64,000 nucleotides of DNA. Source: an uncultured Rickettsiales bacterium. Its GTDB lineage: Bacteria > Pseudomonadota > Alphaproteobacteria > Rickettsiales > UBA1997. The DNA lies in NCBI GenBank assembly GCA_944391075.1, contig CALXSG010000004.1, forward strand, positions 10,445 through 74,444. Reading direction: 5' to 3'. Of this stretch, positions 14,301 through 54,622 are shown piece by piece. The translations under genes and the position numbers were made by a program. A model generated the notes under the pieces. It was not told the origin of the DNA. It saw only the letters and a program-made list of their open reading frames with translations, and did not search any database. Positions within the stretch are counted from its first letter, which is position 1, and every line of letters starts with the position of its first letter.

Positions 14301-16517
14301 TTACATGCAACTATTAATAGTTCTGCTAATAACATCTAATTGTTGTTCTTTTGTTAATTTAATGAAATTAACAGCATAACCAGAAACTCTAATTGTGAGT
14401 TGTGGATATTTTTCAGGATGGTTCATAGCATCTTCAAGTAATTCTCTAACAAATACATTTACATTAAGATGTTGACCACCTTTTGGTGTAAAGTAACCAT
14501 CAAGTAAAGATACAAGGTTAGTGATTTGCGAATCTTTGTCTTTACCTAATGCTTGTGGAGTAATTGCAAATGTGTATGAAATACCATCTCTTGAATAAGC
14601 AAATGGAAGTTTAGCAACAGAAGATAAAGCTGCAATAGCACCTTTTGTATCTCTACCATTCATAGGGTTAGCACCAGGAGCAAATGGAGTACCAGCTTTT
14701 CTTCCACAAGGTGTAGCACCTGTATTCTTTCCATAAACAACATTTGATGTAATTGTTAAAAGTGATTGAGTTGCTAATGCTCCTCTATATGTCTCATGGC
14801 TAGCCATATAACCCATAAATGTTTTTACTAAATCACAAGCAATTTTATCTGCTTCTTCATCATTATTTCCAAAAGGAACATAATCACCTTCTCTTTCAAA
14901 ATCAACAGCTAAACCTTGTTCGTTTCTAATAACTTTTACTTTGCAATTTTTAATAGCATTTAATGAATCAGCAACAATAGAAAGTCCTGCAATACCTGAT
15001 GCTTCAAATCTTTCTACATCTGTATCGTGTAAAGCCATTTCATATGCTTCATAATCATATTTGTCATGCATGTAGTGAATAATTTTTAAAGCATTACAAT
15101 ATGTTTTAGCAAGCCATTTCATCATTTGATTAAATTTTGCCATAACTTCATCATAATCTAAATATTCACTTGTAATAGGTTCAAACATAGGACCAACTTG
15201 ATCGCCATGAATTTCATCTTTACCGCCGTTTATAGCATAAAGTAAACATTTTACTAAATTAGCTCTTGCGCCGAAGAATTGCATTTGTTTACCAATTTTC
15301 ATTGATGAAACACAACAAGCAATACCATAATCATCACCATAAATTGGTCTCATTAAATCATCGTTTTCATATTGAATAGCAGATGTATCAATAGAAACTT
15401 TTGCACAGAATTTTTTCCAATTTTCAGGAAGATTTTCAGACCATAAAACTGTTAAGTTTGGTTCTGGTGCAGGACCTAAATTATATAATGTATTTAAGAA
15501 TCTAAAAGATGTTTTTGTAACAAGTGTTCTTCCATCAACACCCATACCACCAAGTGATTCTGTAACCCAAGTAGGATCGCCAGTAAATAATGAATTATAT
15601 TCAGGAGTTCTTAAGAATCTAACAATTCTTAATTTAATAATCATTTGATCTACTAACTCTTGTGCTTCTTCTTCTGTTAATTTTCCTTCTTCAATATCTT
15701 TTTCAATATAAATATCAAGGAAAGTTGAAACTCTACCAAGAGACATAGCAGCACCATCTTGATCTTTTACAGCTCCTAAATATGCAAAGTATACCCATTG
15801 TACTGCTTCTTTTGCATTTGTAGCAGGTTTTGATACATCAAAGCCGTAATTAGCACACATTTTTTTGAATGATTTTAAGGCATTGATTTGTTCTGTAAGT
15901 TCTTCTCTCTTTCTAATAATATCTTCAGTATATTCTTCACCACCCATATTTTTGAAATCTTTTTGCTTTTCCTCAATCAATCTATCAACACCATATAAAG
16001 CAACTCTTCTATAATCACCAATAATTCTACCTCTACCATAAGCATCAGGTAAACCTGTAATTATGTGAGCATGTCTGCAAGCTCTAATATCTTGATCGTA
16101 TGCTGAAAATACACCATCATTATGTGTTTTTCTGTATTTTGTAAAGATTTCTTTTGTTAATGGGTCAAGTTCATAACCATAAGATTTTAAAGCTGTTTCA
16201 ACCATTCTTAAACCACCTTTTGGAAAAATACCTCTTTTTAATGGTTTATCTGTTTGAAGTCCAACAATAGTTTCGTTGTCTTTATCAATATAACCTGCAC
16301 CATAAGTTTCAAGACTTTGTGGGAGTTTAGTTTCAGCATCATAAACTCCTTTTTCTCTTTCAACTTTAAACATTTCTGTAAGTTTATCCCAAACTTTTTT
16401 TGTTTTTTCTGTTGCTGGTTTTAAAAATTTATCATCACCAGTATATGGTTTATAATTTTCTTGTATAAAATCTCTAACATCAATTTCATCTTTCCAATAT
16501 TCACCTTTAAAGTTCAT
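14301..16517 (-). CDS. pflB: Pyruvate formate-lyase (formate C-acetyltransferase)
   Basis: Glycyl-radical motif RVSGYAVNF near the C-terminus, active-site GIACCVS, and an N-terminus ([27 protein letters not shown]) typical of PFL. I prefer the ATG at 16517, which has a GGAG RBS 8 nt upstream. The ORF track extends to 16583. Confidence 0.93.
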
Positions 16518-16683
16518 ATTTACTCCATTTTTGTTAATAAAATTCATAAATCTTCTTATAACACATTTAATTCTTATTATCAAGAAAAAAATATTTTATA
16601 ATTTTTATCATAAATATATACTATAAATTATTAATTATTTATTTTAATAAAATTTCATAACAATATTTATAATAAAAATATTT

Positions 16684-19912: not shown

Positions 19913-22900
19913 TTATTTATTTATCTTATCTTTAACACTAGCAACCACTTTACCAGGTACAGATTTGATACCATTCCAAGCTTTACCAGGAGCTTCTTTT
20001 GCAAAATTATAAGCAGTACTTGCACCTCTTTTAATACCATTCCAAGCTTTGCCAGGAGCTTCTTTTACTGTAGTATAAGCCTTAACAGCACCATCCTTTA
20101 TATCATTTGCTTTTTGAATAGCAGCATTTTTAATATTTTCTCCTCTTTGTTGCCATGTTTCTTTCTTGAAATTTTTAGCTACATTACCCCAAGTTCTCTT
20201 AACTCCTGCCGTAAAGCCATCTCTATTCCATTCTTTAAATCCATCTCGAACATATCTACCAAATTTTTTACCTGCATTAACAGCAACTTTTTCCGTACCC
20301 TTTGCAATTTTAGCAACATCTTTAATTCTATTTCTGAATTTTTCACCAGTACCTCCAAAGCTCATATTTCCTTCAGCATCATCTGGTGCAGAAAATATTC
20401 TCTTTGAAAAATTTGGTATTTCATCTAACACTTTTACCATCATATATATAACAACTAATACACCACATAAATAACTAAAAATAGCCAATGGATTTTTATA
20501 TATATGACTAACCGAATAAAAAAGGGCATCCAAACCAAAAAAATTTAATATTTTTTCACCAAAAGCCTTTTCACCTTCTGCTGGGCTATTAGGATTATTT
20601 GCAATAAAACATAAAAAACTTAAACCATTATCATCACAAGTTACAGATGGTAATCTACCAGTATAAGGATCATGGCCATAATATCTACCATCACCAAGTA
20701 CTACATCATCTATTGTTAATAATGCAAAACCTATAAAACCCATTAATAATATCATCTGAAAACAAGCACCCATTAAGTTGGAGAGCCAATTATCAAAAAT
20801 ACCTTTATATTTTGCTATTAACAAAAATGGAAAAATAAAAGGTGAAACAAAAATTAATAATGTAATCATCATAATATTTGTAATATATATATAAAATACC
20901 TTAAAAGATAAGACAAAAACTAAGAATAACATAAATGTTAGTACAAACACTACAAGCATACCAAAAGTTGCACTAAAAAGACAAGATATTAAAAATACAA
21001 TTAATGTTCCACTGCTTACACTTATACCATAATAATTTAATATCTTACAATCTAGTGTATCAAACACCATCAAATATTCTTTACCATCAGGGTATTCGTT
21101 ATCACCAAAATAGCAACCATCATATCTATCACTATATGATGCAACAGGATTACCATTTTCATCATAATCTGTATAGTAACGACAGTTACTGTAATATGTA
21201 TTCTCCATAATTTGTTGATTATCATCATTAGATATTAATAATGACGTTTTATATTCAATATCGACAGGTAATTCTGTTGGTAATACACTTACATCTTCTA
21301 TTATCTTATCTTCTTCTAAACCAACAGGAGTAATTTTAACCTTGTTATATTGAGGTGCCATCATATCTTCACTACAATTTGAATAGCACTTTCTAATAAT
21401 AACAATGTTTCCAAATTCATTTGTTTCATTAATGACATCGCATACCTCTTCACCATTAGAAGCATTAATAACATCCTCCGGCAGTTCTTCTACATTTATT
21501 TTTCGATAACCGTTATATAGAATATCAACATCATTAGAATCTGATGGTTCTGATGTAATATAACATATAGTAGCCTTTCCATTTCCAATATTTACACCGT
21601 TATCACCACCACTATTACTTACTATTTTTGTATTAACGTAGCCAGAGCCTCCTCCGCCTCCACCTGTAAGATACATATTTTGACTGGATGTATAATAAGC
21701 AACCATACTCGATGCTCCACCGCCATAATAACCTCCTCCACCACCACTTCCACCCGCATATCCATCTTGTCCACTTCCACCTTTACCAAACACTCCATTA
21801 TTTAAAGCACAATAATTTAATACACTTGCAGAATTTACCCTTTCAAAATTACACTTATTTCCTAATGCATCACAATTTTGAATACATTTATTATTACTTA
21901 TACAATCTTCATAGCTTAAACACAATGAATTATTAATACAATCATTTATAATATCTTGTGTTTTACATATAAAATTATAAGAGCAGCTACCACCAATACC
22001 ACCAGAAGTTAATGTGCCAGGCGATCCAAAACACTGTCTATTATCTTCACTAAAAATATTGTTACTTTGTCCACCTGAATTATTTCCACCACCCCCATCT
22101 CCACCGGAAAATACACCATTATAAGAAATTCCACCACCACCACCGGCAACCATAATTCTAGATTCCAAACTTCTTTGTGTATTAGTACCACTATCAATTA
22201 ACGTTCTAATATCAGTAGCCCCACCACCTCCATGTCCAACAAGATTTTGATAGCCATAACCACCATTTCCACCACCATTATAACCGCCACAAGAAAAATA
22301 ACTTCCATACATATTTTTAATCTCTTGAGAACAATTTTCATTAGATGCTACACCGCCCACATAAATATATAATTTATTCGGTATTAAAACTTTGGTAAGA
22401 TCTAATTCTCCATATGTATAACCACCTTTTCCCACATTAGCTGTGACTAATTGTCCATTAGCACCTATTACTGGATTGCCATTATTTATAGTATTTGTCA
22501 ATTCTGAACTTGCGCCATATAATTCAACAATTATTTTTAAATAATCACTAGATATATTAAATTCATATTCACCAGGTTCTGAATAAACTGTACAATTCTC
22601 AAGAATTTCTCTAGTTTCAGTATAATAACATTGCTTTACCTTACCTTTAGTAGTAATTTCGTGTTCTTTTCTAACATCACATACAACATTTAAAAAATCA
22701 TTTTTATAATCATCATAATCTAAAAAAGAAAATTCAAACATCTTTGCATTCACAAAACGCAAAGCTTCCATTAGCCAATTATAGAATTTTGTTTGCCAAG
22801 CATTAGTTAATGAAAAATATAACACAATAGCTATTTTAATCAACATCATAATAATAGCTTTAACACTTTTTGTATTAAAAACATCAAGTTCACCAGTAAT

Positions 22901-25051
22901 TAAAAATTTGGCAGAAGCTATTACTATTGCTAAAGTAATAAATAATATTATTATATGTCTAACAGTATTTTGAATCCTAAAAAATATATTATTCTCCTGA
23001 GGTAACTCTTCACCAATTATATAATTATATGCATTTTTATCTCCAGAATATTCAGCATTATATTTTTCATGCCTAATTTCACCAGGTTTAGAAAAAGTAT
23101 CGCGTCCACATAAACCTTCGCTATTAACTGTTTCATCGCTAGATTTACAAGAACTTGTACCAGCTATATTTAAAAACATATTTTTTATAGCCTCTGTGAT
23201 ACACTCAGCCATAGGAGATAAAAAACCTCTAGGCCCACCACCTACAAACCCTGCTATTTCTATATCTTCTAATTTAACTGGATATTGAAAATTTTGCCCA
23301 GAACCCTTAGTAAAATCAAAACATACCTCAGGCAAAAATTTATTATGTGTATCATTTTCATCGGTTATAATTGAATACGTAATAGGCATTTCCTCATATT
23401 CCACACAATGCACATTTTGCTCACAAAAATTTTTTACATTACCATATGATGATGCATGCGTACTTGCAACCGCAGTCGATGTTGTTTCCCATATTTTATC
23501 ATAATCTTGTCCATATCTTGACTGCCATTCATCATAATTATTATTTTCCTTATCTTCACTATCAAAAGGATTCTGACAAGATATATAATCACCATCACAG
23601 TATAAATCTTTAATTTCAGTTCCATATGAAACATTAAAATTATAAGGAAACAAATTAGCCGATCTAACACATAATTTTTTTGATTTTGATGAGCCAACAT
23701 AATAAGAATTTTTATCTAGCACACCTTCATATAATTTATAATAAACTTTTCTATCACCTTTAATATTTAAAGAACAAATATGACTATTATTAGCCATACT
23801 CTGATTTGAGCAAAATGCTATACTATGTTGTCTTGATATTGTGTTATTATTCTCTACTGTAAAATCATAATTTAGACCATTTATTTTTGTATAATAACCG
23901 ACATTTTGAGTTAATTTATTTGGTGCATATAAACAAATACCTCCATTACTTCTTTTTTCACAACATTGTTTAGCTAAACTAAAAAGTAATTCACATTCTT
24001 TAGAATTTCTTGAATATTCAGTTCCATTCATATCAATGCATGGATTGCCTTTATAATCGAATCTATCACAAGCATAATTAGCGGTTTGAGAACCTCTAAA
24101 ATAATATCTTTGCTCATTACTCTTATAGCCTTTTTCTCCTTCAATTCTTGGATCAAAACATCCATAATTTGAACTGTATATCATTTTATTATTAACTACA
24201 ATATCATTATATACAGTGTCAATATGATTACTATTTCTAGGTATTGAAAACTCTTCACCTTCGTATAGCATTTCTCTATAAAAGCGATTTTTTTTATTCC
24301 GTGTAGCAATATTCATTCCAGCGCAATTTGTAGCATCACAAAATTTACTATCTATAAGCATAGAAACCACTGGAAAACACTCTTGTTTAAATTTAGTACA
24401 CTTTGAACCATTATCTAAATTAGCAGTCTTTATACAATCATTTATTATATCTTTTTTTAATGTAACAGTTCCATCATTGGCAACACTAAAATAATTATCA
24501 CAATTATATTTACCAGAAAAAATATTTGATAATTTATATTCATAAGAGTTAGAAAATGCTCCAAATGCTGGATACCAATTAATTTTCGGAGTATTTTTAA
24601 CATTACTAGACAATATTGCATATGTATTCCAATCATAACCGCATATTTTTACAGCATCCCTAATTTCATTTATATCGCCAGTAGAAAATTCATTAGTTAA
24701 AGATCTATTATTAAGAATATAGTTCTGTTCTGTCGTTTTAACAGCACTACCACTAGCTGAACAATATAAAGGAATATTGCCATCATCATCAGTAACAAAA
24801 GCTATATTATTGTTTATAACAGATGACAAATCTACTAAAGCATTGTTTATACCTTGTACTAGTATTGTTGCTTTATTACAAGAATCAATATCCCCATCTA
24901 GAGCTGTATAACCTTTATCCTCTTTTAAAAAATCGGAACATTTAACAATAGACGAAGCAAACGACACTTTTAAGCTATAACTCAACAACGATATAGCTAT
25001 ATATAATATTATTTTTAATATAAAATTTACCTTTTTTCTTATTATCTTCAT
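19913..25051 (-). CDS. Giant VirB6/TrbL-like T4SS inner-membrane protein (1712 aa)
   Basis: Domain order:
- Signal peptide.
- Cys-rich ectodomain.
- Glycine-rich loop domain.
- Polytopic core containing the TrbL/VirB6-like segment LIFVSPFIFPFLLIAKYKGIFDNWLSNLMGACFQ.
- Repeat-bearing basic C-tail.
It follows virB3-virB4 and a VirB6 paralog, and it is paralogous to 25129-28158 over multiple motifs. Confidence 0.8.
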   Translation of the reverse strand: MKIIRKKVNFILKIILYIAISLLSYSLKVSFASSIVKCSDFLKEDKGYTALDGDIDSCNKATILVQGINNALVDLSSVINNNIAFVTDDDGNIPLYCSASGSAVKTTEQNYILNNRSLTNEFSTGDINEIRDAVKICGYDWNTYAILSSNVKNTPKINWYPAFGAFSNSYEYKLSNIFSGKYNCDNYFSVANDGTVTLKKDIINDCIKTANLDNGSKCTKFKQECFPVVSMLIDSKFCDATNCAGMNIATRNKKNRFYREMLYEGEEFSIPRNSNHIDTVYNDIVVNNKMIYSSNYGCFDPRIEGEKGYKSNEQRYYFRGSQTANYACDRFDYKGNPCIDMNGTEYSRNSKECELLFSLAKQCCEKRSNGGICLYAPNKLTQNVGYYTKINGLNYDFTVENNNTISRQHSIAFCSNQSMANNSHICSLNIKGDRKVYYKLYEGVLDKNSYYVGSSKSKKLCVRSANLFPYNFNVSYGTEIKDLYCDGDYISCQNPFDSEDKENNNYDEWQSRYGQDYDKIWETTSTAVASTHASSYGNVKNFCEQNVHCVEYEEMPITYSIITDENDTHNKFLPEVCFDFTKGSGQNFQYPVKLEDIEIAGFVGGGPRGFLSPMAECITEAIKNMFLNIAGTSSCKSSDETVNSEGLCGRDTFSKPGEIRHEKYNAEYSGDKNAYNYIIGEELPQENNIFFRIQNTVRHIIILFITLAIVIASAKFLITGELDVFNTKSVKAIIMMLIKIAIVLYFSLTNAWQTKFYNWLMEALRFVNAKMFEFSFLDYDDYKNDFLNVVCDVRKEHEITTKGKVKQCYYTETREILENCTVYSEPGEYEFNISSDYLKIIVELYGASSELTNTINNGNPVIGANGQLVTANVGKGGYTYGELDLTKVLIPNKLYIYVGGVASNENCSQEIKNMYGSYFSCGGYNGGGNGGYGYQNLVGHGGGGATDIRTLIDSGTNTQRSLESRIMVAGGGGGISYNGVFSGGDGGGGNNSGGQSNNIFSEDNRQCFGSPGTLTSGGIGGSCSYNFICKTQDIINDCINNSLCLSYEDCISNNKCIQNCDALGNKCNFERVNSASVLNYCALNNGVFGKGGSGQDGYAGGSGGGGGYYGGGASSMVAYYTSSQNMYLTGGGGGGSGYVNTKIVSNSGGDNGVNIGNGKATICYITSEPSDSNDVDILYNGYRKINVEELPEDVINASNGEEVCDVINETNEFGNIVIIRKCYSNCSEDMMAPQYNKVKITPVGLEEDKIIEDVSVLPTELPVDIEYKTSLLISNDDNQQIMENTYYSNCRYYTDYDENGNPVASYSDRYDGCYFGDNEYPDGKEYLMVFDTLDCKILNYYGISVSSGTLIVFLISCLFSATFGMLVVFVLTFMLFLVFVLSFKVFYIYITNIMMITLLIFVSPFIFPFLLIAKYKGIFDNWLSNLMGACFQMILLMGFIGFALLTIDDVVLGDGRYYGHDPYTGRLPSVTCDDNGLSFLCFIANNPNSPAEGEKAFGEKILNFFGLDALFYSVSHIYKNPLAIFSYLCGVLVVIYMMVKVLDEIPNFSKRIFSAPDDAEGNMSFGGTGEKFRNRIKDVAKIAKGTEKVAVNAGKKFGRYVRDGFKEWNRDGFTAGVKRTWGNVAKNFKKETWQQRGENIKNAAIQKANDIKDGAVKAYTTVKEAPGKAWNGIKRGASTAYNFAKEAPGKAWNGIKSVPGKVVASVKDKINK
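19968..20066 (-). repeat. 66-nt-period direct repeat encoding KEAPGKAWNGIK x2 in the C-terminal tail of the giant VirB6-like protein
   Basis: The 33-nt units at 19968-20000 and 20034-20066 differ at one base (ataccattccaagctttRccaggagcttctttt). Confidence 0.85.
21554..22576 (-). other. ALK/LTK-type glycine-rich domain (Pfam Gly_rich-like) inserted in the VirB6-like protein (residues ~826-1166)
   Basis: Signature string: GEYEFNISSDYLKIIVELYGA...LYIYVGG...CGGYNGGGNGGYG...GHGGGGATDIRT...RIMVAGGGGG...GGDGGGG...GGSGGGGGYYGGG...LTGGGGGGSGYV...GNGKATICY. Confidence 0.7.
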
Positions 25052-25128: not shown

Positions 25129-28100
25129 TTATCCTTTATCCTGTTCTTTTTGCGCTGCAACTTTTTCTCTTAACTTTGACGTAGAAGATTTATTGACAAT
25201 CTTTTTTACAGCACCAACAGTAAGACGTTTTACAAATAATACCGTCTGCACTGCTTTTCCAGCAACAACCATTGGATTTACATCAGCACCCAAACCTGGT
25301 ATAGCAGCACTACCTGTTAAAGTTGAGGCTATTCTAGGAACTCTATTTAACATATTATCTAAAACCACTACTAAAATAAGAATAGAAAGTAAAGTAATAA
25401 CATCGTTAATTACTACATCTGTAATACGAAAAATAATACCAAATACCAAATCAGTGCTAATATTTGACATTAAACACAATGGGCTATTACGCTTTATATC
25501 AATAATTTTATCACCTGATTTACAATTTTTTAGATCTGCATTACCTTTAAGTTTATCTAATACATTAATCCATATCTTTTGCATTTCAAGTTCTTTTTGT
25601 TCTTGTGATATTCCCTGTTTTTCTAGATCATTTATTTCTGTATTTAAATAATATGAAACGAAAGCATTTCGTTTACTTGTATAAGCAACAAGATCACCCG
25701 TATCTTGATCATAGCATGCAAAACCACAAACCAATTCTTTATTAGGACCTGAACCAGTGAAAAGTCCACTACCTAACATAAAATTATCAATAATCATAAT
25801 AGATATAGAAACAAATGCTACCATTACAAATGGCTGAATAGCATAACCTAATAAATTTTTAAACCATTTCTGAAAAATTCCATTAAATTTTTTAAATAAT
25901 AATGTTGGAATAATAATTGGAGATAAAAATAATAGTATAGTAATTGCAATCATAGAAGCTACATAAATATATACTATTTTTAATGCAAATATAAATAAAG
26001 TTATTCCTAAAAACATTGAAATAAAACCAATAAATAAACCTAGACCAAATGGCCATATAATAGATAATACATATAATTTAACTATTCCCCAACCAGTACC
26101 ATTGTCAAATGCTGAATAGCCAAAATATTTAGCAATTTTACAATCTAGAGCATCAAAGAAAGATACATATCGTCTATCGCTTGGATAATCATCATAGTTA
26201 TTATCATATTTAGCTATAGCCTCAATAATTTCAGGAGAATCATCTGTAAATCTTAAACTTGTAATATCCCCAAAATAACAACCATCATCTCTAACAAGAT
26301 TACCATGTTCATCAACAAGAGTTTCAAAACCTATCTTTGAAACAGTTGAAAATAATAAATCGTTTAAAGCATAAGTAAATTTAAATATTAAATTATACCA
26401 TGATGTATTTACTGTTAATGCTACAATAAAACTAATTTTTACTATTAACATAACAATATCATATCTACTGCCAAGAGCACCACCTTTTATTAAAACATTA
26501 TAACCATATAAAGATATTGCAAAAGCAATAAACATATATGTAATATTTTTAGTATATCTGATAATATCTTGTAATGGATGTTTGTATGAATCAACACCAT
26601 CTGAAGAAACAATATTAGTATCAAATTCTTGCCCAGCTTTAAATATTTCTCCACTTTCACATTCATTCATATGATTAGGAGTTTCTGATATAACCTTACA
26701 TCTAGTATGACCGGCTTTATTTAATAATAAATTTTTCATAGTTTCAACCACACATTCAACAGCAGGAGCAAATATTGTTTTTGGATACAAATCAACAGCA
26801 CGATTATAAGCAGAATATGAAGCATATCCTGTTGTATTATGAGAATTACCAACTAAATTAAGGCACGCTTTATCTAAATATGGTGAATATGTATTAGCAT
26901 AAATAAATTCAATATTATTATTGCTAACTTGAGTGCAATGTCTATTATATTGAAAGAAATTTTTATTTTTACCTTCACATAATGGATAAACTACACCATT
27001 ATCATTACAATCATCTTTATCATATTGTATTTCGCAATTAGCATAATCTCCGCTATCTTGACACGCCTTCATACTATCTTCATTTGGTATTCTTTCAAAA
27101 ACAGATGTAGCATAATCAGAACCACCTTCTACATTAACATTGTCAGGACATAAATTATATGTTTTAATACAATATCTATTAGTATTTTCTACTTCACTAT
27201 CTACAGTAAAGTTTTTAAATACTTTAAATTTGATATCATCTACTTTACATTCATTATCATAGATTGAACAAAATGTAGCTAAATTATTTTTTTCATTTTT
27301 ATATATACAAACACTTTGTTGCGCCTTTAAACAACACTGATACGCTATATCGAATGCATCACCAGTTTTTGATCTTTTTTCTAAATATCTTTCACATAAA
27401 TAATTACCATAATCATAACCTCTCATATAATATGTTTGATAAGCTTGTTCTTCACCTCTAAAAATATCATAATTCTTAGCTTCAGGTCTTGGATCTATAC
27501 AAGCATAATTAATAATCTCTTCACCATCATACATATTTTCTCTAAACACTCTATCATTCTGTGTAAAATAATTACCACCATCAACAGGTTGACAGGTATT
27601 ATCATTATTACCTTTTTGACATCTTTCTAATGCCACTACACCATCACAATCATTAATATTTCTTACACATTTATTTACTTCAAATTTATATGAGCCATTA
27701 AATGCTCCTCGAGTTGGATAATATTTTTTGATATTAGCAAATGCTGAACAATTACCAGCTTCACAACCTCCTGCTTTATTATAATCATTAATAGCTTGCT
27801 CATTACCATAAGTTAACCAATTTGCACCACATATTTTAAAATTTAAAAGAACACTCTGCGATATACTAAATTTATCCTTAAAATCAAATCCACCAAAACT
27901 CTGATTCCACCAACAATATCCATTATCCATTTCCCATTTTGAATTATCTTTTTCGAATATTATCGGCTCTCCACTTACCCAATTATACCCAATTATTTTA
28001 AAACTCGATGAAAATTTTAGTCCATCTGAACCATCCTCAGTAACTTCATATACTTGTTCAAGTGGTCTACTCAAATTAAGATCAGCAAAAGTATCAGAAA

Positions 28101-28158
28101 TATTACTATATAAAGTTAAACAAATAATAAAAATAATTTTATAAATATTTTTTATCAT
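25129..28158 (-). CDS. VirB6/TrbL-like T4SS inner-membrane protein with a Cys-rich N-terminal ectodomain (~1009 aa from the preferred start)
   Basis: Signal peptide MIKNIYKIIFIICLTLYSNISDTFA. The polytopic region contains LFLSPIIIPTLLFKKFNGIFQKWFKNLLGYAIQP, a VirB6/TrbL hallmark. The preferred ATG at 28158 overlaps the virB4 TGA as ATGA. The ORF track extends to 28194. Confidence 0.82.
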   Translation of the reverse strand: MIKNIYKIIFIICLTLYSNISDTFADLNLSRPLEQVYEVTEDGSDGLKFSSSFKIIGYNWVSGEPIIFEKDNSKWEMDNGYCWWNQSFGGFDFKDKFSISQSVLLNFKICGANWLTYGNEQAINDYNKAGGCEAGNCSAFANIKKYYPTRGAFNGSYKFEVNKCVRNINDCDGVVALERCQKGNNDNTCQPVDGGNYFTQNDRVFRENMYDGEEIINYACIDPRPEAKNYDIFRGEEQAYQTYYMRGYDYGNYLCERYLEKRSKTGDAFDIAYQCCLKAQQSVCIYKNEKNNLATFCSIYDNECKVDDIKFKVFKNFTVDSEVENTNRYCIKTYNLCPDNVNVEGGSDYATSVFERIPNEDSMKACQDSGDYANCEIQYDKDDCNDNGVVYPLCEGKNKNFFQYNRHCTQVSNNNIEFIYANTYSPYLDKACLNLVGNSHNTTGYASYSAYNRAVDLYPKTIFAPAVECVVETMKNLLLNKAGHTRCKVISETPNHMNECESGEIFKAGQEFDTNIVSSDGVDSYKHPLQDIIRYTKNITYMFIAFAISLYGYNVLIKGGALGSRYDIVMLIVKISFIVALTVNTSWYNLIFKFTYALNDLLFSTVSKIGFETLVDEHGNLVRDDGCYFGDITSLRFTDDSPEIIEAIAKYDNNYDDYPSDRRYVSFFDALDCKIAKYFGYSAFDNGTGWGIVKLYVLSIIWPFGLGLFIGFISMFLGITLFIFALKIVYIYVASMIAITILLFLSPIIIPTLLFKKFNGIFQKWFKNLLGYAIQPFVMVAFVSISIMIIDNFMLGSGLFTGSGPNKELVCGFACYDQDTGDLVAYTSKRNAFVSYYLNTEINDLEKQGISQEQKELEMQKIWINVLDKLKGNADLKNCKSGDKIIDIKRNSPLCLMSNISTDLVFGIIFRITDVVINDVITLLSILILVVVLDNMLNRVPRIASTLTGSAAIPGLGADVNPMVVAGKAVQTVLFVKRLTVGAVKKIVNKSSTSKLREKVAAQKEQDKG

Positions 28159-30548
28159 AACTTCCTCACTCTTTTGTAAAATATTGGCAACCAATCTTCT
28201 GGTTTATCACTTTTTATTTCTTCAATAATTTGATCAAGTAATAAAACAGTTTCAGCTCTTCCAGATAATACATTTATTACATCTGTCATACCTGATAAAT
28301 CAATTTTTGCAACAACACCACTATTATCTTGTTTAATTAAAAAATATCTACTACCGGGATCAATACTCTTTATAAGTTGAAATTCTCTTGCTGATAGCAT
28401 AAATACACTTCTATAAGCTTCTGTAGCTCTTAAATTAGGTAAATAAATTTGAGTAGCCGTTTGTTGAACAAGTGTATCAGAAATAGCACTTTTTGTGGCA
28501 TCTTCAACCGATTGTGTAGCAAAGACAACAAACGCATTTAACTTTCTTAAAACTTTTAACCAATCCTTAATTCTAGGTGCAAAAACAGGATTATCAATTA
28601 ATGCCCAAGCCTCATCAAGAATAATCATTGTAGGTGTTCCATCTAAAGAAGCATTAATTCTTTGAAATAAATAAAGCAAAACAGGGTTAATACTAATTTT
28701 ATCTTTTAATAATTCGCCCATTTCAAAACCAAATATCTTAGATGAAAAGAAATCAATATTATCGGTTTCATTATCAAATAATTTTGCACGTGAACCATCA
28801 GAATGCCACATTTCTAACCTTCCCGCTAATGTATCAGGACCAGAAATACCTAAGAATGGTGCTATATTTCTTAAAATTCTTTTTTTGGGTGGTAATTTAT
28901 AATTACCATTAACAGCTTCTGTAATTCTAGCCATATCACTTGCTGTAACTTTTTCACCATTAACACTTACCATACTTCTAATCCAGTCTATTAGAAAATC
29001 TTTATTTTCATTGGTTTCTGGCAGTAATAATGGATTAAAGCCAGCTGATTTACTAGTTTCTATTGTTGTATATTTACCACCCATAGCTCTAATAAATATT
29101 TCCGCACCTCTATCCTTATCAAAAAAGAACATTCTGCAATTAAATTTTTGTGCCTGTGCACATAAAAAGTTCATTGTAACTGTTTTACCACTACCAGTAG
29201 GTCCAACAATCATTGTGTGTCCAACATCCCTAACATGAAAATTAAAGAAAAATGGTGTACCTGAAACCGTATTTAAAACAGTAACAGCAGGTCCCCAATG
29301 ATTTCTTCTAATTCTACCAGAAGGATAATTATGTAAAGAGGCAAAACTTGCTAGATTTAATGTATTTATTGTAGCTGCTCTTACAACATATTGGAAATTT
29401 CCAGGCAACTGTGCCCAAAATACAGCTTCCATATTCATTCTTTCTCTAACAGCATTTATACCCATATTAGAAAATTCTACAACAATCATTGATAAATCAT
29501 TCTCAATTGATTTTATGGTATCATCTATACACATAACCGTCATATGATGCTTTCCAAAAGCAAACTTACCACTCATAATTTCATCTAATGCTTGATCTAT
29601 TTCTTGAATTTGAGATACAGCAACATCTTCAGATTGAATCATTCTCCTTTGTTGTAATTGTATACTACTAATAGCAATTGTTCTATTAACAAATTTAAAT
29701 GATTGTGAAATAATAAATTCAAATGGCAATTGCAAAAAACCATCCATCATACCAGCATTTGTTGCATTTCTATATTCTTTTAAAGAAACCATACCACCAT
29801 ATTTAGTTTCAAATGGCATTTTTACTTCAAAATTTTTAGCGCCAAAATATATTCTATTGGTTGGCAAATAAGATGCAAAACCATATGGAATAAATCTATA
29901 ATTTTGTACATAACCGCAATTAACTATACTTCCTAAAAAATTACATATTTCTGAGAAAATACCATCACTGGTTTCCACAACATCAAGTAATTCAGCACCA
30001 TAATTTGATAGACCATTCAAAATTCTAGATGTCAATTCTTCTATTTCACTAAAATTTTCTCTCATATTTTTGATTCTAGCATTTTCATCAGCTTTATTTC
30101 GAAGTCTTCTGGCAAAAGTCGCAACTTTTGCTAAACCGGCTTTGTCATCCATTCTTATAATACTAACATACTCTTCATTAGCAAAACTTCTATCACCATC
30201 ATGCTTGCGCTTCCATTCTTCATTTACTTTTTTTGCAAAAATATTTGTCATCTCTCCTTCTGGAAAAGCCTCTTTTCTTCGTCTAATTGTATGAAAATAA
30301 AGCCCTAAATTACCAGAAGCCATACTTTTAAATAAATTATTTCTATGATTCTTCTTTATATCTATTTCTTCGTCATCAGCAGTTTCAAAAGAAAAACCTT
30401 TAATTCTTACAACTCTTAATAAGGCATTATCTTTCATTAAAATGGTATTAGAATTCCAAAAACATTTATATGGTATGTAAATGGAAGATGAAGTTTCCCA
30501 TTTGAAATATTTATTTTTAGGAGGTTGTATAATGCCTAATTTCATCAA
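28155..30548 (-). CDS. virB4: Type IV secretion system ATPase VirB4
   Basis: 797 aa. Walker A GPTGSGKT and Walker B MIILDEAW. Size and neighbours (virB3 upstream, virB6-like downstream) fit. Confidence 0.93.
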   Translation of the reverse strand: MMKLGIIQPPKNKYFKWETSSSIYIPYKCFWNSNTILMKDNALLRVVRIKGFSFETADDEEIDIKKNHRNNLFKSMASGNLGLYFHTIRRRKEAFPEGEMTNIFAKKVNEEWKRKHDGDRSFANEEYVSIIRMDDKAGLAKVATFARRLRNKADENARIKNMRENFSEIEELTSRILNGLSNYGAELLDVVETSDGIFSEICNFLGSIVNCGYVQNYRFIPYGFASYLPTNRIYFGAKNFEVKMPFETKYGGMVSLKEYRNATNAGMMDGFLQLPFEFIISQSFKFVNRTIAISSIQLQQRRMIQSEDVAVSQIQEIDQALDEIMSGKFAFGKHHMTVMCIDDTIKSIENDLSMIVVEFSNMGINAVRERMNMEAVFWAQLPGNFQYVVRAATINTLNLASFASLHNYPSGRIRRNHWGPAVTVLNTVSGTPFFFNFHVRDVGHTMIVGPTGSGKTVTMNFLCAQAQKFNCRMFFFDKDRGAEIFIRAMGGKYTTIETSKSAGFNPLLLPETNENKDFLIDWIRSMVSVNGEKVTASDMARITEAVNGNYKLPPKKRILRNIAPFLGISGPDTLAGRLEMWHSDGSRAKLFDNETDNIDFFSSKIFGFEMGELLKDKISINPVLLYLFQRINASLDGTPTMIILDEAWALIDNPVFAPRIKDWLKVLRKLNAFVVFATQSVEDATKSAISDTLVQQTATQIYLPNLRATEAYRSVFMLSAREFQLIKSIDPGSRYFLIKQDNSGVVAKIDLSGMTDVINVLSGRAETVLLLDQIIEEIKSDKPEDWLPIFYKRVRKL

Positions 30549-30561
30549 TTTGTCCCATTAA

Positions 30562-30861
30562 TTAATAAAGGTCATAAGAATTTGTTCCATTATAAAATGT
30601 CCTGTTTTTACATCTCATAAAATTGCTACTTTTCATAATAACAATCTCTAAAGCTAGTGGTTCTTTTAAACAAATTATATAAGCAATACCGTGTAAAAGT
30701 GGTAACATAACAATTAAATAAATAAATTTATTTGTCATCACAAATAGTAATAATGAACCTAGAATATTTAAAGAAGCAAACACATAGGACACACCAAGAA
30801 TCATACTTGATCTGGTCAAACCTAAGAACAATGAATCAACTTCTATTTTTCCATCAGCCAT
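30562..30861 (-). CDS. virB3: Type IV secretion system protein VirB3
   Basis: From ATG 30861: MADGKIEVDSLFLGLTRSSMILGVSY..., with two TM helices. This is typical VirB3 size and motif (LF.GLTRP.M.GV). The longer ORF-track start at 30954 adds only an I/L/F-rich extension. Confidence 0.8.
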   Translation of the reverse strand: MADGKIEVDSLFLGLTRSSMILGVSYVFASLNILGSLLLFVMTNKFIYLIVMLPLLHGIAYIICLKEPLALEIVIMKSSNFMRCKNRTFYNGTNSYDLY

Positions 30862-31025
30862 AAAAAATATAACGTTATATAATATATATATTAACAAGTA
30901 TAAAACTAAAATCAAGAAAAAAACAAAGATATTTTTGTTTTTTAAAAAAATCAAACTATATAAAAGTGTTGCAATATTAAAAAATAAAATTAAAATTATA
31001 GTAATTTGAATGAATAAGGAAAAAA

Positions 31026-51700: not shown

Positions 51701-54301
51701 TTAGATATCAAAGTCAGTCTCACCTTCGTATGCTTTCCAATATAATTCTTCAATTTCAGAAATTAAAGGATATCTAGGGTTACAACCTGTACTTTGATCA
51801 TCAAATGCTTCTTCTGCTAAACCATTCTTTAAAGCTTTTTCAAGATCTTCTTTCTTTACACCACCTTCTTTCATAGAAGTTTTGATACCAACAGAAGTTT
51901 TTAATTCTTGAAGAGCCTTAATTAAATTATTTACTTTTTCATCATCATTCTTTCCACCTAAACCTAAATAATCTGCAATATGTGCATATCTTTGTTTAGC
52001 AAATGGATATTTGTATTGTGGGAATGCTGCTTGTTTTGTAGGTTTTTCAGAACTATTATACTTAATTACCTGACAAATCAAGTAAGCATTAGCAATACCA
52101 TGTGGAATATGTAAATGTCCACCAATTTTATGTGCCATTGAGTGGCAAACACCTAAAAAGGCATTAGCAAAAGCCATACCAGCAAGTGTTGCTGCATAAT
52201 GAACTTGTTCTCTGTCATATTCAGTGCATTCATTTACAGATTTTGGTAAGTGTTTAAACAATAATTTTAAACCTTCCAATGCAACACTATCAGTAAATGG
52301 ACTGGCCATTGTTGAAACATATGCTTCAAGACAATGTGTAACAGCATCAATACCAGAAGCAGCAGCTAAACCCTTAGGCATTGTCATAACAAAATCAGGA
52401 TCAATAATAGCCATACTAGGTGTAAATGCATAATCAGCTAATGGGTATTTAATGCCTGTTGCATCATCAGTAATAACTGAGAATGAACTAATTTCTGAAC
52501 CTGTACCTGATGTTGTAGGAATACAAATTAATTTAGCTACTTGTCCTAAATCTTTTAGCATAAAGATTCTTTTTCTAATATCCATAAATCTCATGGCAAC
52601 ATCTTCAAAAGCAATTTCTGGTTGCTCGTACATTAACCATAAAATTTTTGCAGCATCCATAGGTGAACCTCCACCTAATGCAATAATTAAATCAGGTTTA
52701 AATGTTCTAACATCATGTATTGCTTTATTAATTGTTGATAAATCTGGATCTGGATGAACATCATAGAAAAGTGTATATTCTACACCTATTTCATCAAGAA
52801 CATTTGTAACTTTCTTTGTTGTTCCTAAATCAAATAAGATTTTATCAGTAATAATAAATGCTTTTTTATGGCCTTTTAATTCTTCTAATGCAAATTTAGT
52901 ACAACCTTTCTTAAAATAAATCTTTGGTGGTACTTTGAACCATAACATATTTTCTTCTCTCATAGCTACTGTTTTAATATTAATAAGTTGTTTAACACCT
53001 ACGTTCTCACTAACGGAATTTTTACCCCAACTTCCGCAACCTAACGTTAAAGAAGGCTCCAACCTAAAATTATAAACATCACCAATACCACCGAAAGAAG
53101 AAGGAGTATTTACTAAAATTCTTCCTGTATCCATTACATCAGCATATTTCTTAATTCTATCTGTATATTGTTGATTTGTATAGAGAATAGATGTATGGCC
53201 TGCACCACCTAAATTAACTAATGCATGAGCTTTTTTTACACCATCTTCAAAATCTTTTGCTTTATACATACCAAGTAATGGAGATAATTTTTCTCTACCC
53301 CATGGTTCATTCATACTAATTTCAGTAGCTTCACCAATTAATATTTTTGTTTTTTCTGGAACTTTAATACCTGCCATTTCAGCAATTTTTGTAGCAGGTT
53401 GACCAACTATTGCAGAATTCAATACACCATTAGGGAAAGCAAAATTAATCAATTTTGTTTTATCTTGGCCTTTTACGTAGTATGCACCCCTTTTTTCAAA
53501 TTCTTTTTTAATATCGTCATATATTGATTCAACTACAACAGCACTTTGTTCAGATGCACATATCATACCATTATCAAAAGTTTTACTCATAATAATAGAA
53601 GATACGGTTGTTTCAATATCAGCTGTTTCATCAATTAAAGCAGGAGCATTTCCCGCACCAACACCAACAGCTGGTTTACCACAGCTATAAGCAGCTTTAA
53701 CCATACCAGGACCACCTGTTGCTAAAATTAAATCAACATCAGGGTGGTTCATTAAGGCCGCTGACAATTCAACACTAGGTTCATCAATCCAACCTAATAA
53801 ATTATCAGGAGCACCTGCTTGTCTAGCAGCTTCAACCACAACCTTTAATGCTTCAATAGTACATTTTTTAGCTCTTGGATGCGGTGAAAATACCATAGCA
53901 TTTCTAGTTTTTAAAGCAATTAAACATTTAAAAATTGCAGTTGCAGTTGGGTTTGTTGTAGGAACAACACAAGCTATAATTCCAACAGGGTCAGCAATTT
54001 TCATCATACCATGTGTAATATCTTCTTCAATAATACCGCAAGTTTTTGTATTCTTATATTTATTATAAATATATTCTGCTGCAAAATGATTTTTAATAAC
54101 TTTATCTTCAACAACACCCATACCAGTCTCTTCAACAGCCATTTTTGCAAGTCTAATTCTTTCAGTATTAGCTAATAATGCTGTTCTTTTAAAAATTTCA
54201 TCTACTTGTTCTTGTGAATATGTAGCGTAGATTTTTTGCGCTTCTTTGACTTTTTTAAGTAGAGCATCGAGACTTTCAAGTGAATTAACCAACTCTGTCA
54301 T
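51701..54301 (-). CDS. adhE: Bifunctional acetaldehyde-CoA/alcohol dehydrogenase
   Basis: About 866 aa. N-terminal ALDH domain (catalytic Cys context FDNGMICASEQ) fused to an iron-type ADH domain (GGGSPMDAAK, HSMAHKIGG). I prefer the ATG at 54301. Confidence 0.93.
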   Translation of the reverse strand: MTELVNSLESLDALLKKVKEAQKIYATYSQEQVDEIFKRTALLANTERIRLAKMAVEETGMGVVEDKVIKNHFAAEYIYNKYKNTKTCGIIEEDITHGMMKIADPVGIIACVVPTTNPTATAIFKCLIALKTRNAMVFSPHPRAKKCTIEALKVVVEAARQAGAPDNLLGWIDEPSVELSAALMNHPDVDLILATGGPGMVKAAYSCGKPAVGVGAGNAPALIDETADIETTVSSIIMSKTFDNGMICASEQSAVVVESIYDDIKKEFEKRGAYYVKGQDKTKLINFAFPNGVLNSAIVGQPATKIAEMAGIKVPEKTKILIGEATEISMNEPWGREKLSPLLGMYKAKDFEDGVKKAHALVNLGGAGHTSILYTNQQYTDRIKKYADVMDTGRILVNTPSSFGGIGDVYNFRLEPSLTLGCGSWGKNSVSENVGVKQLINIKTVAMREENMLWFKVPPKIYFKKGCTKFALEELKGHKKAFIITDKILFDLGTTKKVTNVLDEIGVEYTLFYDVHPDPDLSTINKAIHDVRTFKPDLIIALGGGSPMDAAKILWLMYEQPEIAFEDVAMRFMDIRKRIFMLKDLGQVAKLICIPTTSGTGSEISSFSVITDDATGIKYPLADYAFTPSMAIIDPDFVMTMPKGLAAASGIDAVTHCLEAYVSTMASPFTDSVALEGLKLLFKHLPKSVNECTEYDREQVHYAATLAGMAFANAFLGVCHSMAHKIGGHLHIPHGIANAYLICQVIKYNSSEKPTKQAAFPQYKYPFAKQRYAHIADYLGLGGKNDDEKVNNLIKALQELKTSVGIKTSMKEGGVKKEDLEKALKNGLAEEAFDDQSTGCNPRYPLISEIEELYWKAYEGETDFDI

Positions 54302-54622
54302 ATTTCTACCCTTTTTTATTGTTAACATTTCTATTATTATAACAAAAATTTTAATATTAAAGATATTTTTTAAATAATCTTAAAATTGATATATTAAAGC
54401 ATAAATATTAAATATATTAACTAAATTAAATATAAAAATAATTACAAATAATATTAAAAATTATCATATATTAAACAAAATTGTATATTTTACCAAAAAG
54501 AATATATTTATAGTTGCAAAAAATAGGCCAATTTTTTATATAATTTAAAAACTTGAAAAATATATATTATGTATTAAATTTTTCTTATTATGTTTAATAA
54601 TTGGAGTTATTACATTTTCTTT

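Follow-up and report, generated by a model that had tools for sequence, protein, structure and literature searches.

In the R388 type IV secretion system (T4SS), a VirB6 pentamer serves as base for the periplasmic stalk, which has the VirB5 pentamer on top; the part of VirB6 that lies in the membrane is limited to two N-proximal helices (PMC9259494; PMC12857230). An essential tryptophan after a core helix is a hallmark of VirB6 proteins (PMC2653234). A recognised class, the extended VirB6 proteins, combines the VirB6 core with at least one large hydrophilic domain in a central or C-proximal position, and the role of these extra domains is not yet known according to a 2025 review (PMC12857230). 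The reason for the expansion of VirB6 in Rickettsiales is an acknowledged puzzle. The glycine-rich domain (GRD) of the receptors ALK and LTK (Pfam family PF12810) is already known to be widespread in bacteria and phages. Here, we describe a locus in which the two meet. It lies in a stretch of 64,000 nucleotides from an uncultured Rickettsiales bacterium (contig CALXSG010000004.1, positions 10,445–74,444; the whole stretch is hereafter called the window, and coordinates refer to it). A chromosomal operon in the window encodes two VirB6 paralogues. The second, a protein of 1712 residues (paralogue II), carries a GRD homologue as an insert that separates its N-proximal helix pair from its VirB6 core.

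A glycine-rich domain in a VirB6-like protein

Residues 826–1166 of paralogue II are a true homologue of the ALK/LTK GRD. The ordered series of glycine-rich motifs from which a sequence-only reading of the window had proposed such a domain is present as written, and corresponds exactly to nucleotides 21554–22576. The Pfam profile ALK_LTK_GRD (PF12810) matches residues 842–1155 with an E-value of 6.3e-20 (72.6 bits against a gathering cut-off of 24.5; profile positions 12–204 of 243), and 11 of the 19 aligned family members have a PF12810 match, the best at E = 3.7e-30. The chance control consisted of three global shuffles of the segment, three shuffles inside 15-residue windows, which keep the local glycine richness, and the reversed sequence. 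The real segment scored 72.9 bits in this control and the reversed sequence 7.5 bits (E = 4.7), while none of the six shuffled copies gave a PF12810 match. Thus, the signal is set by the order of the motifs and not by glycine composition, the compositional bias that the earlier reading had named as its possible undoing. The domain holds seven runs of at least three glycines, which are its conserved part.

Homology to the solved receptor domains was found at the profile level. A profile built from 107 homologues (A2) reached LTK at 1.3e-11 and ALK at 3e-10 to 9e-10 among the PDB sequences, and a profile built from VirB6-type proteins only (A1) reached ALK at 1.4e-8. A single-sequence phmmer search of the PDB with the GRD did not find ALK and returned only weak GTPBP10/Obg matches (E = 0.28). 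An AlphaFold2 (AF2) model of residues 811–1180, based on the alignment of 107 sequences (model 1), has a predicted local distance difference test score (pLDDT) of 80.5 and a predicted TM-score (pTM) of 0.82. The glycine runs are modeled with high confidence as neither helix nor strand, and β-strands are supplied from both ends of the domain. When this model was compared with the PDB by Foldseek, the top 19 matches were all ALK/LTK GRDs (E = 4.6e-8 to 3e-4, probability 1.0), in line with the receptor fold, in which a β-sandwich is interwoven with a glycine-rich subdomain. The next PDB match was a tail-tip chain of mycobacteriophage Bxb1. Among the predicted viral structures of BFVD, 92 matches were obtained at E ≤ 1e-3, with TM-scores up to 0.51–0.58; most are phage proteins, and the annotations of several name a virion structural or a tail-collar protein.

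The assignment of the host protein to VirB6 is supported by its operon context, downstream of virB3 and virB4, by TrbL matches in its paralogue and homologues, and by its modeled core. Pfam matches had been expected for both the GRD and TrbL. The former spans the segment, but the 1712-residue protein has no TrbL (PF04610) match at E ≤ 0.1, and likewise no TrbL/VirB6 match in NCBIfam. VirB6 membership was therefore established through homologues, paralogue and fold. TrbL is matched in 18 of the 19 aligned homologues, the adjacent paralogue I included (E = 1.1e-10), and the TrbL region of paralogue I aligns by BLASTP to residues 1292–1474 of paralogue II with 31% identity (E = 1e-32); the N-terminal domains of the two paralogues share 22% identity (E = 2e-21). 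Trp1422 is invariant in all 19 family members and is a candidate for the counterpart of the A. tumefaciens tryptophan. In Foldseek, an AF2 model of residues 690–1560 (model 2, pLDDT 79.9) had ALK as its first match (7mzy_A, E = 7.9e-5), followed by eight chains from the stalk complex of R388. These are the TrwI/VirB6 chains 8rt9_F, 8rtd_H/I/L and 7o3v_F–I, with E-values of 0.016–0.15, probabilities of at least 0.99 and target-normalised TM-scores of 0.42–0.59; chain 7o3v_F was verified as "TrwI protein" (VirB6). Profile A1 did not reach TrwI among the PDB sequences, and an IncX4 VirB6 query that did so at E = 0.41 was used solely for chain identification. The fold of a solved VirB6 is thus recovered where the TrbL profile is not. 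With an N-terminal domain of 660 residues, a central insert of 540 and a tail of 167 in addition to the core, the protein is an extended VirB6.

The anatomy of paralogue II is given in Table 1. Ala32 and Cys38, at the end of and shortly after the predicted signal peptide, are nearly invariant in the family. The N-proximal helices 700–718 and 730–748 are joined by a short basic turn, and model 2 has helices at 691–719, 730–748 and 751–775. The hydrophobic core, at about 1344–1545, comprises a block of 66 residues (1344–1411), which fits three helices, followed by helices 1429–1447 and 1524–1542; model 2 contains two 40-residue helices in this region. Both the helix pair and the core were found where the sequence-only reading had put them. 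In between lies a 588-residue, net acidic stretch with 22 cysteines and 6.5% Lys/Arg. A cleaved signal peptide and two helices ahead of this loop would place it in the periplasm whatever follows, and three helices in 1344–1411 would give an odd helix count, consistent with N-out and C-in. There are 28 cysteines in the N-terminal domain, 22 in the loop and none in the Lys/Arg-rich tail. Signal peptide, cysteine distribution, charge bias and helix parity, all indirect, therefore agree on the periplasmic loop that had been proposed.

The insert is larger than the GRD. In model 2, the region following the GRD forms long β-hairpins (strands within 1175–1293, pLDDT 78–94), and it evolves fast, with 27–34% identity where the core has 39–75%. 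Cys791 and Cys1290 flank the whole insert and are nearly invariant, also in orthologues without a GRD; they probably form a disulfide clamp at its base. The insert very likely faces the periplasm on a pedestal of long β-hairpins closed at the base by these two cysteines, with the GRD at the far end. The Cys-rich sub-insert that had been seen to interrupt the GRD was confirmed. It is modeled as short helices (1031–1040, 1047–1052 and 1055–1060) with low pLDDT at 1067–1080, and it occurs only in the closest clade (P0001–P0007), being absent from more distant GRD-bearing VirB6 proteins. Neither the stem nor the post-GRD region matched a Pfam family, and the N-terminal domain matched none either.

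Throughout the family, the first membrane helices are preceded by a Cys-rich domain of about 550–660 residues, in which more than 20 cysteines are conserved; the copy of paralogue I is encoded at 26566–28194 (-). In the lysine-rich tail of paralogue II, the two exact copies of KEAPGKAWNGIK are encoded at 19964–19999 and 20030–20065 (-) and lie 22 residues apart; the tail outside these copies is poorly conserved among homologues.

Table 1. Features of the GRD-bearing VirB6 paralogue and of its operon (window coordinates)
Feature	Nucleotides	Strand	Residues	Evidence and remarks
VirB6 paralogue II, extended VirB6, GRD-bearing	19913..25051	(-)	1–1712	open reading frame, 1712 residues, no interruption over 5.1 kb
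Predicted signal peptide	24956..25051	(-)	1–32	basic n-region MKIIRKK, hydrophobic h-region, SFA|SS; hydropathy, cleavage inferred
N-terminal Cys-rich domain	22970..24955	(-)	33–694	28 Cys; common to both paralogues; inferred periplasmic
N-proximal membrane helix pair	22808..22954	(-)	700–718, 730–748	hydropathy 2.77 and 2.24
N-side stem of insert	22577..22741	(-)	771–825	Cys791, Cys808, Cys820; long β-hairpin 788–801/804–817 in AF2 model
ALK/LTK-type GRD	21554..22576	(-)	826–1166	Pfam envelope 842–1155
Cys-rich helical sub-insert in GRD	21794..21988	(-)	~1022–1086	10 Cys in 1003–1086; alignment, AF2 model
Post-GRD region	21185..21553	(-)	1167–1289	ends just before nearly invariant Cys1290
Loop-closing motif	21029..21124	(-)	1310–1341	YDGCYFGD.EYP.GKEYL..FD.LDCKI..Y; common to paralogue I and all homologues
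VirB6/TrbL helical core	20417..21028	(-)	1342–1545	includes invariant Trp1422
C-terminal tail	19916..20416	(-)	1546–1712	36 Lys/Arg, no Cys, two KEAPGKAWNGIK repeats; putatively cytoplasmic
VirB6 paralogue I	25129..28194	(-)		1021 residues; PF04610 TrbL, E 1.1e-10; N-terminal Cys-rich domain, helix pair and core as in paralogue II; short loop, no GRD
virB4 ATPase	28155..30548	(-)		797 residues; NF010473 VirB4 equivalog, 1270.7 bits against cut-off 1050; PF03135
virB3, first gene of operon	30562..30954	(-)		130 residues; PF05101 VirB3, E 2.1e-19

Distribution of the insert and of other loop modules

The loop between helix pair and core measures 529–657 residues in GRD carriers, compared to 74–185 in sister orthologues and 49 in paralogue I; its median length over more than 120 other VirB6-like proteins is 47 residues. 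The short loop of paralogue I ends in the same DGCYFGD...YP...FD.LDCKI..Y motif, as had been noted, and all carriers have the GRD at the same position. The earlier claim of a clean domain insertion is supported by the orthologues with 74–185 residues at this place, with the qualification that the inserted segment exceeds the GRD and includes the predicted β-hairpin pedestal on both sides.

The identical protein is found on 22 contigs from several sources. Full-length relatives with 38–62% identity (P0002–P0007) and with about 30% identity (P0015–P0018) carry the GRD in the same place, while the GRD-less sister orthologues (P0008–P0014) share about 40% identity. A survey of 1.84 billion representative proteins added four carriers (P0132, P0133, P0135 and P0136), and none of the VirB6-like proteins in this set was found to have a GRD in any other part of the chain. 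Altogether, the GRD-bearing VirB6 architecture occurs in about 14 protein clusters, from metagenome-assembled genomes (MAGs) of uncultured Rickettsiales and Alphaproteobacteria; the survey of homologues that the sequence-only reading had advised also turned up other modules in the same loop (see below). Among species-representative genomes, the GRD is on the second of two VirB6 paralogues in six loci (L001, L003 and L005–L008), of which L001 is fully syntenic with the window, and it is absent from the VirB6 proteins of L002, L013 and L017 and of the Rickettsiaceae-type multi-virB6 arrays (L019–L026). Two carriers depart from the single copy: P0016 has two tandem GRDs in the loop and P0017 two GRD segments, apparently a duplicated or nested copy. 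Tandem arrays of five and seven GRDs were also seen in the non-VirB6 proteins P0139 and P0163, respectively.

The GRD is as conserved as the VirB6 core (50–60% identity, compared to 41% for the core, between P0001 and P0005), while the post-GRD region and the tail diverge quickly. In an unbootstrapped neighbor-joining tree of the scaffold, the GRD-less clade falls between two GRD clades, and by BLAST the GRDs of these two clades resemble free-standing GRDs at least as closely as they resemble each other. The history of the domain may have been one gain and one loss or two gains, which are equally parsimonious on these sequences.

The same loop holds other modules in other lineages. In P0263 (L018:6422–11911, MAG UBA6178), the first of five tandem VirB6 paralogues, it contains a PF21722 Gly_rich_2 domain (E = 2e-10) flanked by two heptad-patterned, Pro/Gly-poor arms of about 160 residues each, which suggests a head on a long coiled-coil hairpin. 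The loop of P0148 contains EGF-like Cys repeats and a Laminin_G_3 match (LamG-like, ConA-like lectin) that is below threshold (E = 5.7e-4, 20.5 bits against 27.6). In the representative library, the VirB6-like proteins P0148, P0207, P0252 and P0208 have loop inserts of 280–796 residues, and by eye P0207 and P0252 look rich in coiled coil. The VirB6 loop seems to be an insertion hot spot.

Free-standing homologues of the GRD are proteins of 270–650 residues, named "glycine rich domain-containing protein" by NCBI. About half have signal, anchor or pilin-like N-termini, and PF07963 is found in some of the homologues.

Possible roles of the insert

By analogy with R388 TrwI and with DotA of Dot/Icm, VirB6 would assemble into a pentamer that makes the base of the central stalk, and no part of it except the two N-proximal helices would lie in the inner membrane. 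On this model, up to five GRDs could ring the periplasmic stalk. The glycine runs may provide a rigid scaffold, combining polyglycine-II and β-sandwich elements, on which the variable loops between runs, including the Cys-rich sub-insert, would form a binding surface. The GRD would then serve the periplasmic part of the machine as a module for binding or docking, either as a collar or as a contact for another T4SS component, a pilin or a substrate, and the loop between the second transmembrane helix and the core would be a general plug-in site for display modules in extended VirB6 proteins. A binding or display role is suggested by the free-standing relatives, which belong to phage virions or tails or are pilin-like; "ligand-binding", as applied to the VirB6 domain, is accordingly to be read as a putative property. 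Taken as a whole, we consider this explanation likely. Its functional part, in which a rigid glycine scaffold carries a variable binding surface, the GRD acts as a docking module and the loop is a general plug-in site, is a tentative proposal that we consider possible.

Several points weigh against this explanation. The topology was derived from hydropathy, charge and cysteine rules and not from a dedicated predictor, and hydropathy is known from R388 to over-predict the membrane helices of VirB6 (PMC9259494). TrbL is matched only in the relatives and not in the 1712-residue protein itself, and the Foldseek TM-scores to ALK are modest (0.31–0.44). Both the polyglycine-II lattice and the placement of the GRD on its pedestal are predictions, read from the secondary structure and confidence of the models, and homology is the ground on which a pentamer, and a part for this paralogue in the machine, are assumed. 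The GRD was lost from, or never present in, a sister clade; therefore, the domain is not essential to the machine. Finally, Wolbachia builds pili without VirB5 or a GRD (10.1101/2025.08.29.673095).

Two readings would deny the insert its domain or its location. If it were mere glycine-rich low complexity, or the product of a chimeric or fused gene call, one might point to the spurious matches that glycine-rich sequence draws, to the phmmer search that did not reach ALK and to the origin of all carriers in metagenome assemblies. However, shuffles that preserve local composition gave no match, profile searches and fold comparisons both lead to ALK/LTK, the 5.1-kb reading frame has no interruption, and the protein recurs identically on its 22 contigs with an architecture kept down to 30% identity in independent assemblies. 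An artefact of composition or assembly is effectively refuted by these results, and we give it almost no credence. A cytoplasmic insert, for its part, would follow from an even helix count after the loop, with loop and C-terminal tail on the same side. Simple hydropathy does show only two clear peaks in 1344–1411, and topology predictions for VirB6 are known to be unreliable (PMC9259494), but the signal peptide and the two helices that follow put the loop in the periplasm regardless of the count. The cysteine content, net acidity and low Lys/Arg content of the loop, together with the signal, anchor or pilin-type N-termini of about half of the free-standing homologues, point the same way. The cytoplasmic placement was rejected on these grounds and is very improbable.

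The remaining readings accept a periplasmic GRD and differ in what it does. It could be structural filler with no specific ligand, adding bulk to the periplasmic stalk as a rigid spacer or collar, in the manner of "expanded" T4SSs. Polyglycine-II lattices are rigid scaffolds, and the glycine runs are precisely the conserved part of the domain. The Wolbachia rvh machine has a periplasmic collar and extra densities, which its authors ascribe to gene-family expansions (10.1101/2025.08.29.673095). Yet unrelated binding-type modules (Gly_rich_2 and LamG-like) occupy the same loop in other lineages, the variable loops and the lineage-specific Cys-rich sub-insert suggest a diversifying surface, and the sister orthologues manage without any insert, which leaves filler rather unlikely. 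At the other extreme, the GRD could be an adhesin for contact with the host, carried on its pedestal up the central channel or released by processing and exposed at the surface or pilus tip, where it would replace the VirB5 tip adhesin and recognise a protist host. Other extended VirB6 proteins (F TraG and DotA) have been proposed to reach past the periplasm or to be released, relatives of the GRD occur in proteins of phage virions and tails as well as in pilin-like ones, and the arms of P0263, if coiled coil, are long enough to span the periplasm. Rickettsiales rvh systems, moreover, lack VirB5 (PMC2653234; 10.1101/2025.08.29.673095). Set against this, both ends of the GRD are tied to helices of the membrane or stalk, the pedestal strands are only about 14–15 residues long (∼5 nm), a processing site is not evident, pilus formation in VirB5-less Wolbachia needs no GRD, and the VirB5-less state is read from other rvh systems, our data being those of the 64-kb window only. 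We consider such an adhesin unlikely.

A more far-reaching reading would make the loop a modular receptor-binding slot of the T4SS stalk in VirB5-less Rickettsiales-type systems, in which VirB6, instead of VirB5, presents the host-recognition tip. Different lineages would plug in different heads, namely an ALK-type GRD on a β-pedestal, Gly_rich_2 between heptad arms of about 160 residues, or a LamG-like lectin with EGF-like repeats, and would use them in the way these domains serve phage tail fibres and pilins. This reading is doubtful.

In agreement with the earlier supposition that no such protein had been described, full-text literature searches yielded no description of a VirB6 with a glycine-rich domain in its periplasmic loop or of PF12810 in VirB6; searches on anaerobic Rickettsiales found nothing relevant. 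What is new is the combination, since we found no description of an extended VirB6 with an identified GRD. One of the extra domains of extended VirB6 proteins now has a recognisable, binding-type identity, its fold being found elsewhere in phage virion and tail proteins, pilin-like proteins and the extracellular ligand-binding region of receptors, and the range of the ALK/LTK glycine-rich fold now includes an insert within a polytopic membrane protein of bacteria. The combination suggests that VirB6 displays binding modules on its periplasmic loop. This raises testable questions: whether the loop binds, whether it is exposed, and whether a swap of modules changes host range or substrate. The locus also draws attention to a little-known group of apparently anaerobic Rickettsiales.

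Genomic setting and comparison with known systems

The operon reads virB3-virB4-virB6-virB6 in one direction, so that the 1712-residue protein, its fourth product, is encoded with other T4SS genes; ksgA/rsmA follows. The rest of the window carries chromosomal housekeeping genes, such as those for RNase E, RecJ, DegP and a P-type ATPase. The GC content is about 27%, and most genes over positions 1–64000 are on the minus strand, with a strongly negative GC skew throughout. Neither Rfam, at its gathering thresholds, nor ARAGORN found a tRNA, tmRNA or Rfam family in the window.

A prepilin peptidase gene (PF06750 and PF01478; 18393–19118 (+)) adjoins the operon. Just past its counterpart in the syntenic locus L001 lies a gene (L001:19183–21429 (+)) for a 748-residue protein with a pilin-like N-terminus and a PF12810 GRD of its own (E = 1e-17), at a place where the window carries FUR and pyruvate formate-lyase. 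This protein may have donated the VirB6 GRD or be its sibling, although the GRDs of the two are not particularly close. The pyruvate formate-lyase gene (14301–16583 (-); TIGR01255, 1179 bits) and that of a bifunctional aldehyde/alcohol dehydrogenase of the AdhE type (51701–54328 (-)), in a Rickettsiales-type chromosome, suggest a fermentative, anaerobic lifestyle of the host bacterium. Several related MAGs appear to come from gut metagenomes, judging from their record names only.

The closest sequence relatives of the VirB6 GRD are free-standing bacterial and phage proteins, with 35–48% identity over 100–170 residues. Since GRDs are common in bacteria and phages, its closest relatives are prokaryotic and viral and not animal receptors. 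The free-standing proteins, which are extracytoplasmic and appendage-associated, are also better fold matches than ALK (TM-scores up to 0.51–0.58), and the phage virion and tail relatives include the Bxb1 tail tip (9D93_Qb). In these secreted, virion or pilin-like proteins the GRDs are terminal domains, some in 5–7 tandem copies, whereas the VirB6 GRD is internal and leads at both ends back into the membrane protein. The gp38 adhesin of the T-even phage S16 has a polyglycine-II sandwich with hypervariable receptor-binding loops; it shares with our proposal the concept of a glycine-rich scaffold with variable binding segments, as an analogy only, being absent from the first 50 Foldseek matches listed.

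The ALK and LTK domains (PDB 7MZY, 7N00, 7LS0, 7NWZ, 7NX0 and 7LIR) belong to the same Pfam family as the VirB6 GRD, have ordered glycine runs and strands from both ends, and are its best fold matches in the PDB, at 12–17% identity and TM-scores of 0.31–0.44. However, ALK and LTK are single-pass receptors, while the VirB6 GRD is a loop insert in a bacterial membrane protein that lacks an EGF-like domain, a kinase and a cytokine ligand, and it carries a 65-residue Cys-rich helical sub-insert. An ALKAL-type cytokine ligand is not expected in bacteria.

As a VirB6, the protein shares with the TrwI/VirB6 pentamer at the base of the R388 stalk (PDB 7O3V, 8RT9 and 8RTD) two N-proximal helices followed by long helices. 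TrwI, with 342 residues and 9–11% identity to the 1712-residue protein, has neither the N-terminal domain nor the loop insert. The extended VirB6 proteins, such as RvhB6a–e of Rickettsiales, the VirB6 paralogues of Anaplasmataceae, TraG of the F plasmid and DotA of Legionella, also combine a VirB6/TrbL core with large hydrophilic extra domains. As in rvh systems, tandem virB6 paralogues follow virB4, and the VirB4 protein scores above the NF010473 cut-off. This lineage differs from those systems in having two paralogues in the 64-kb window, in place of four or five, and in the Cys-rich N-terminal domain of 660 residues that both paralogues have in common.

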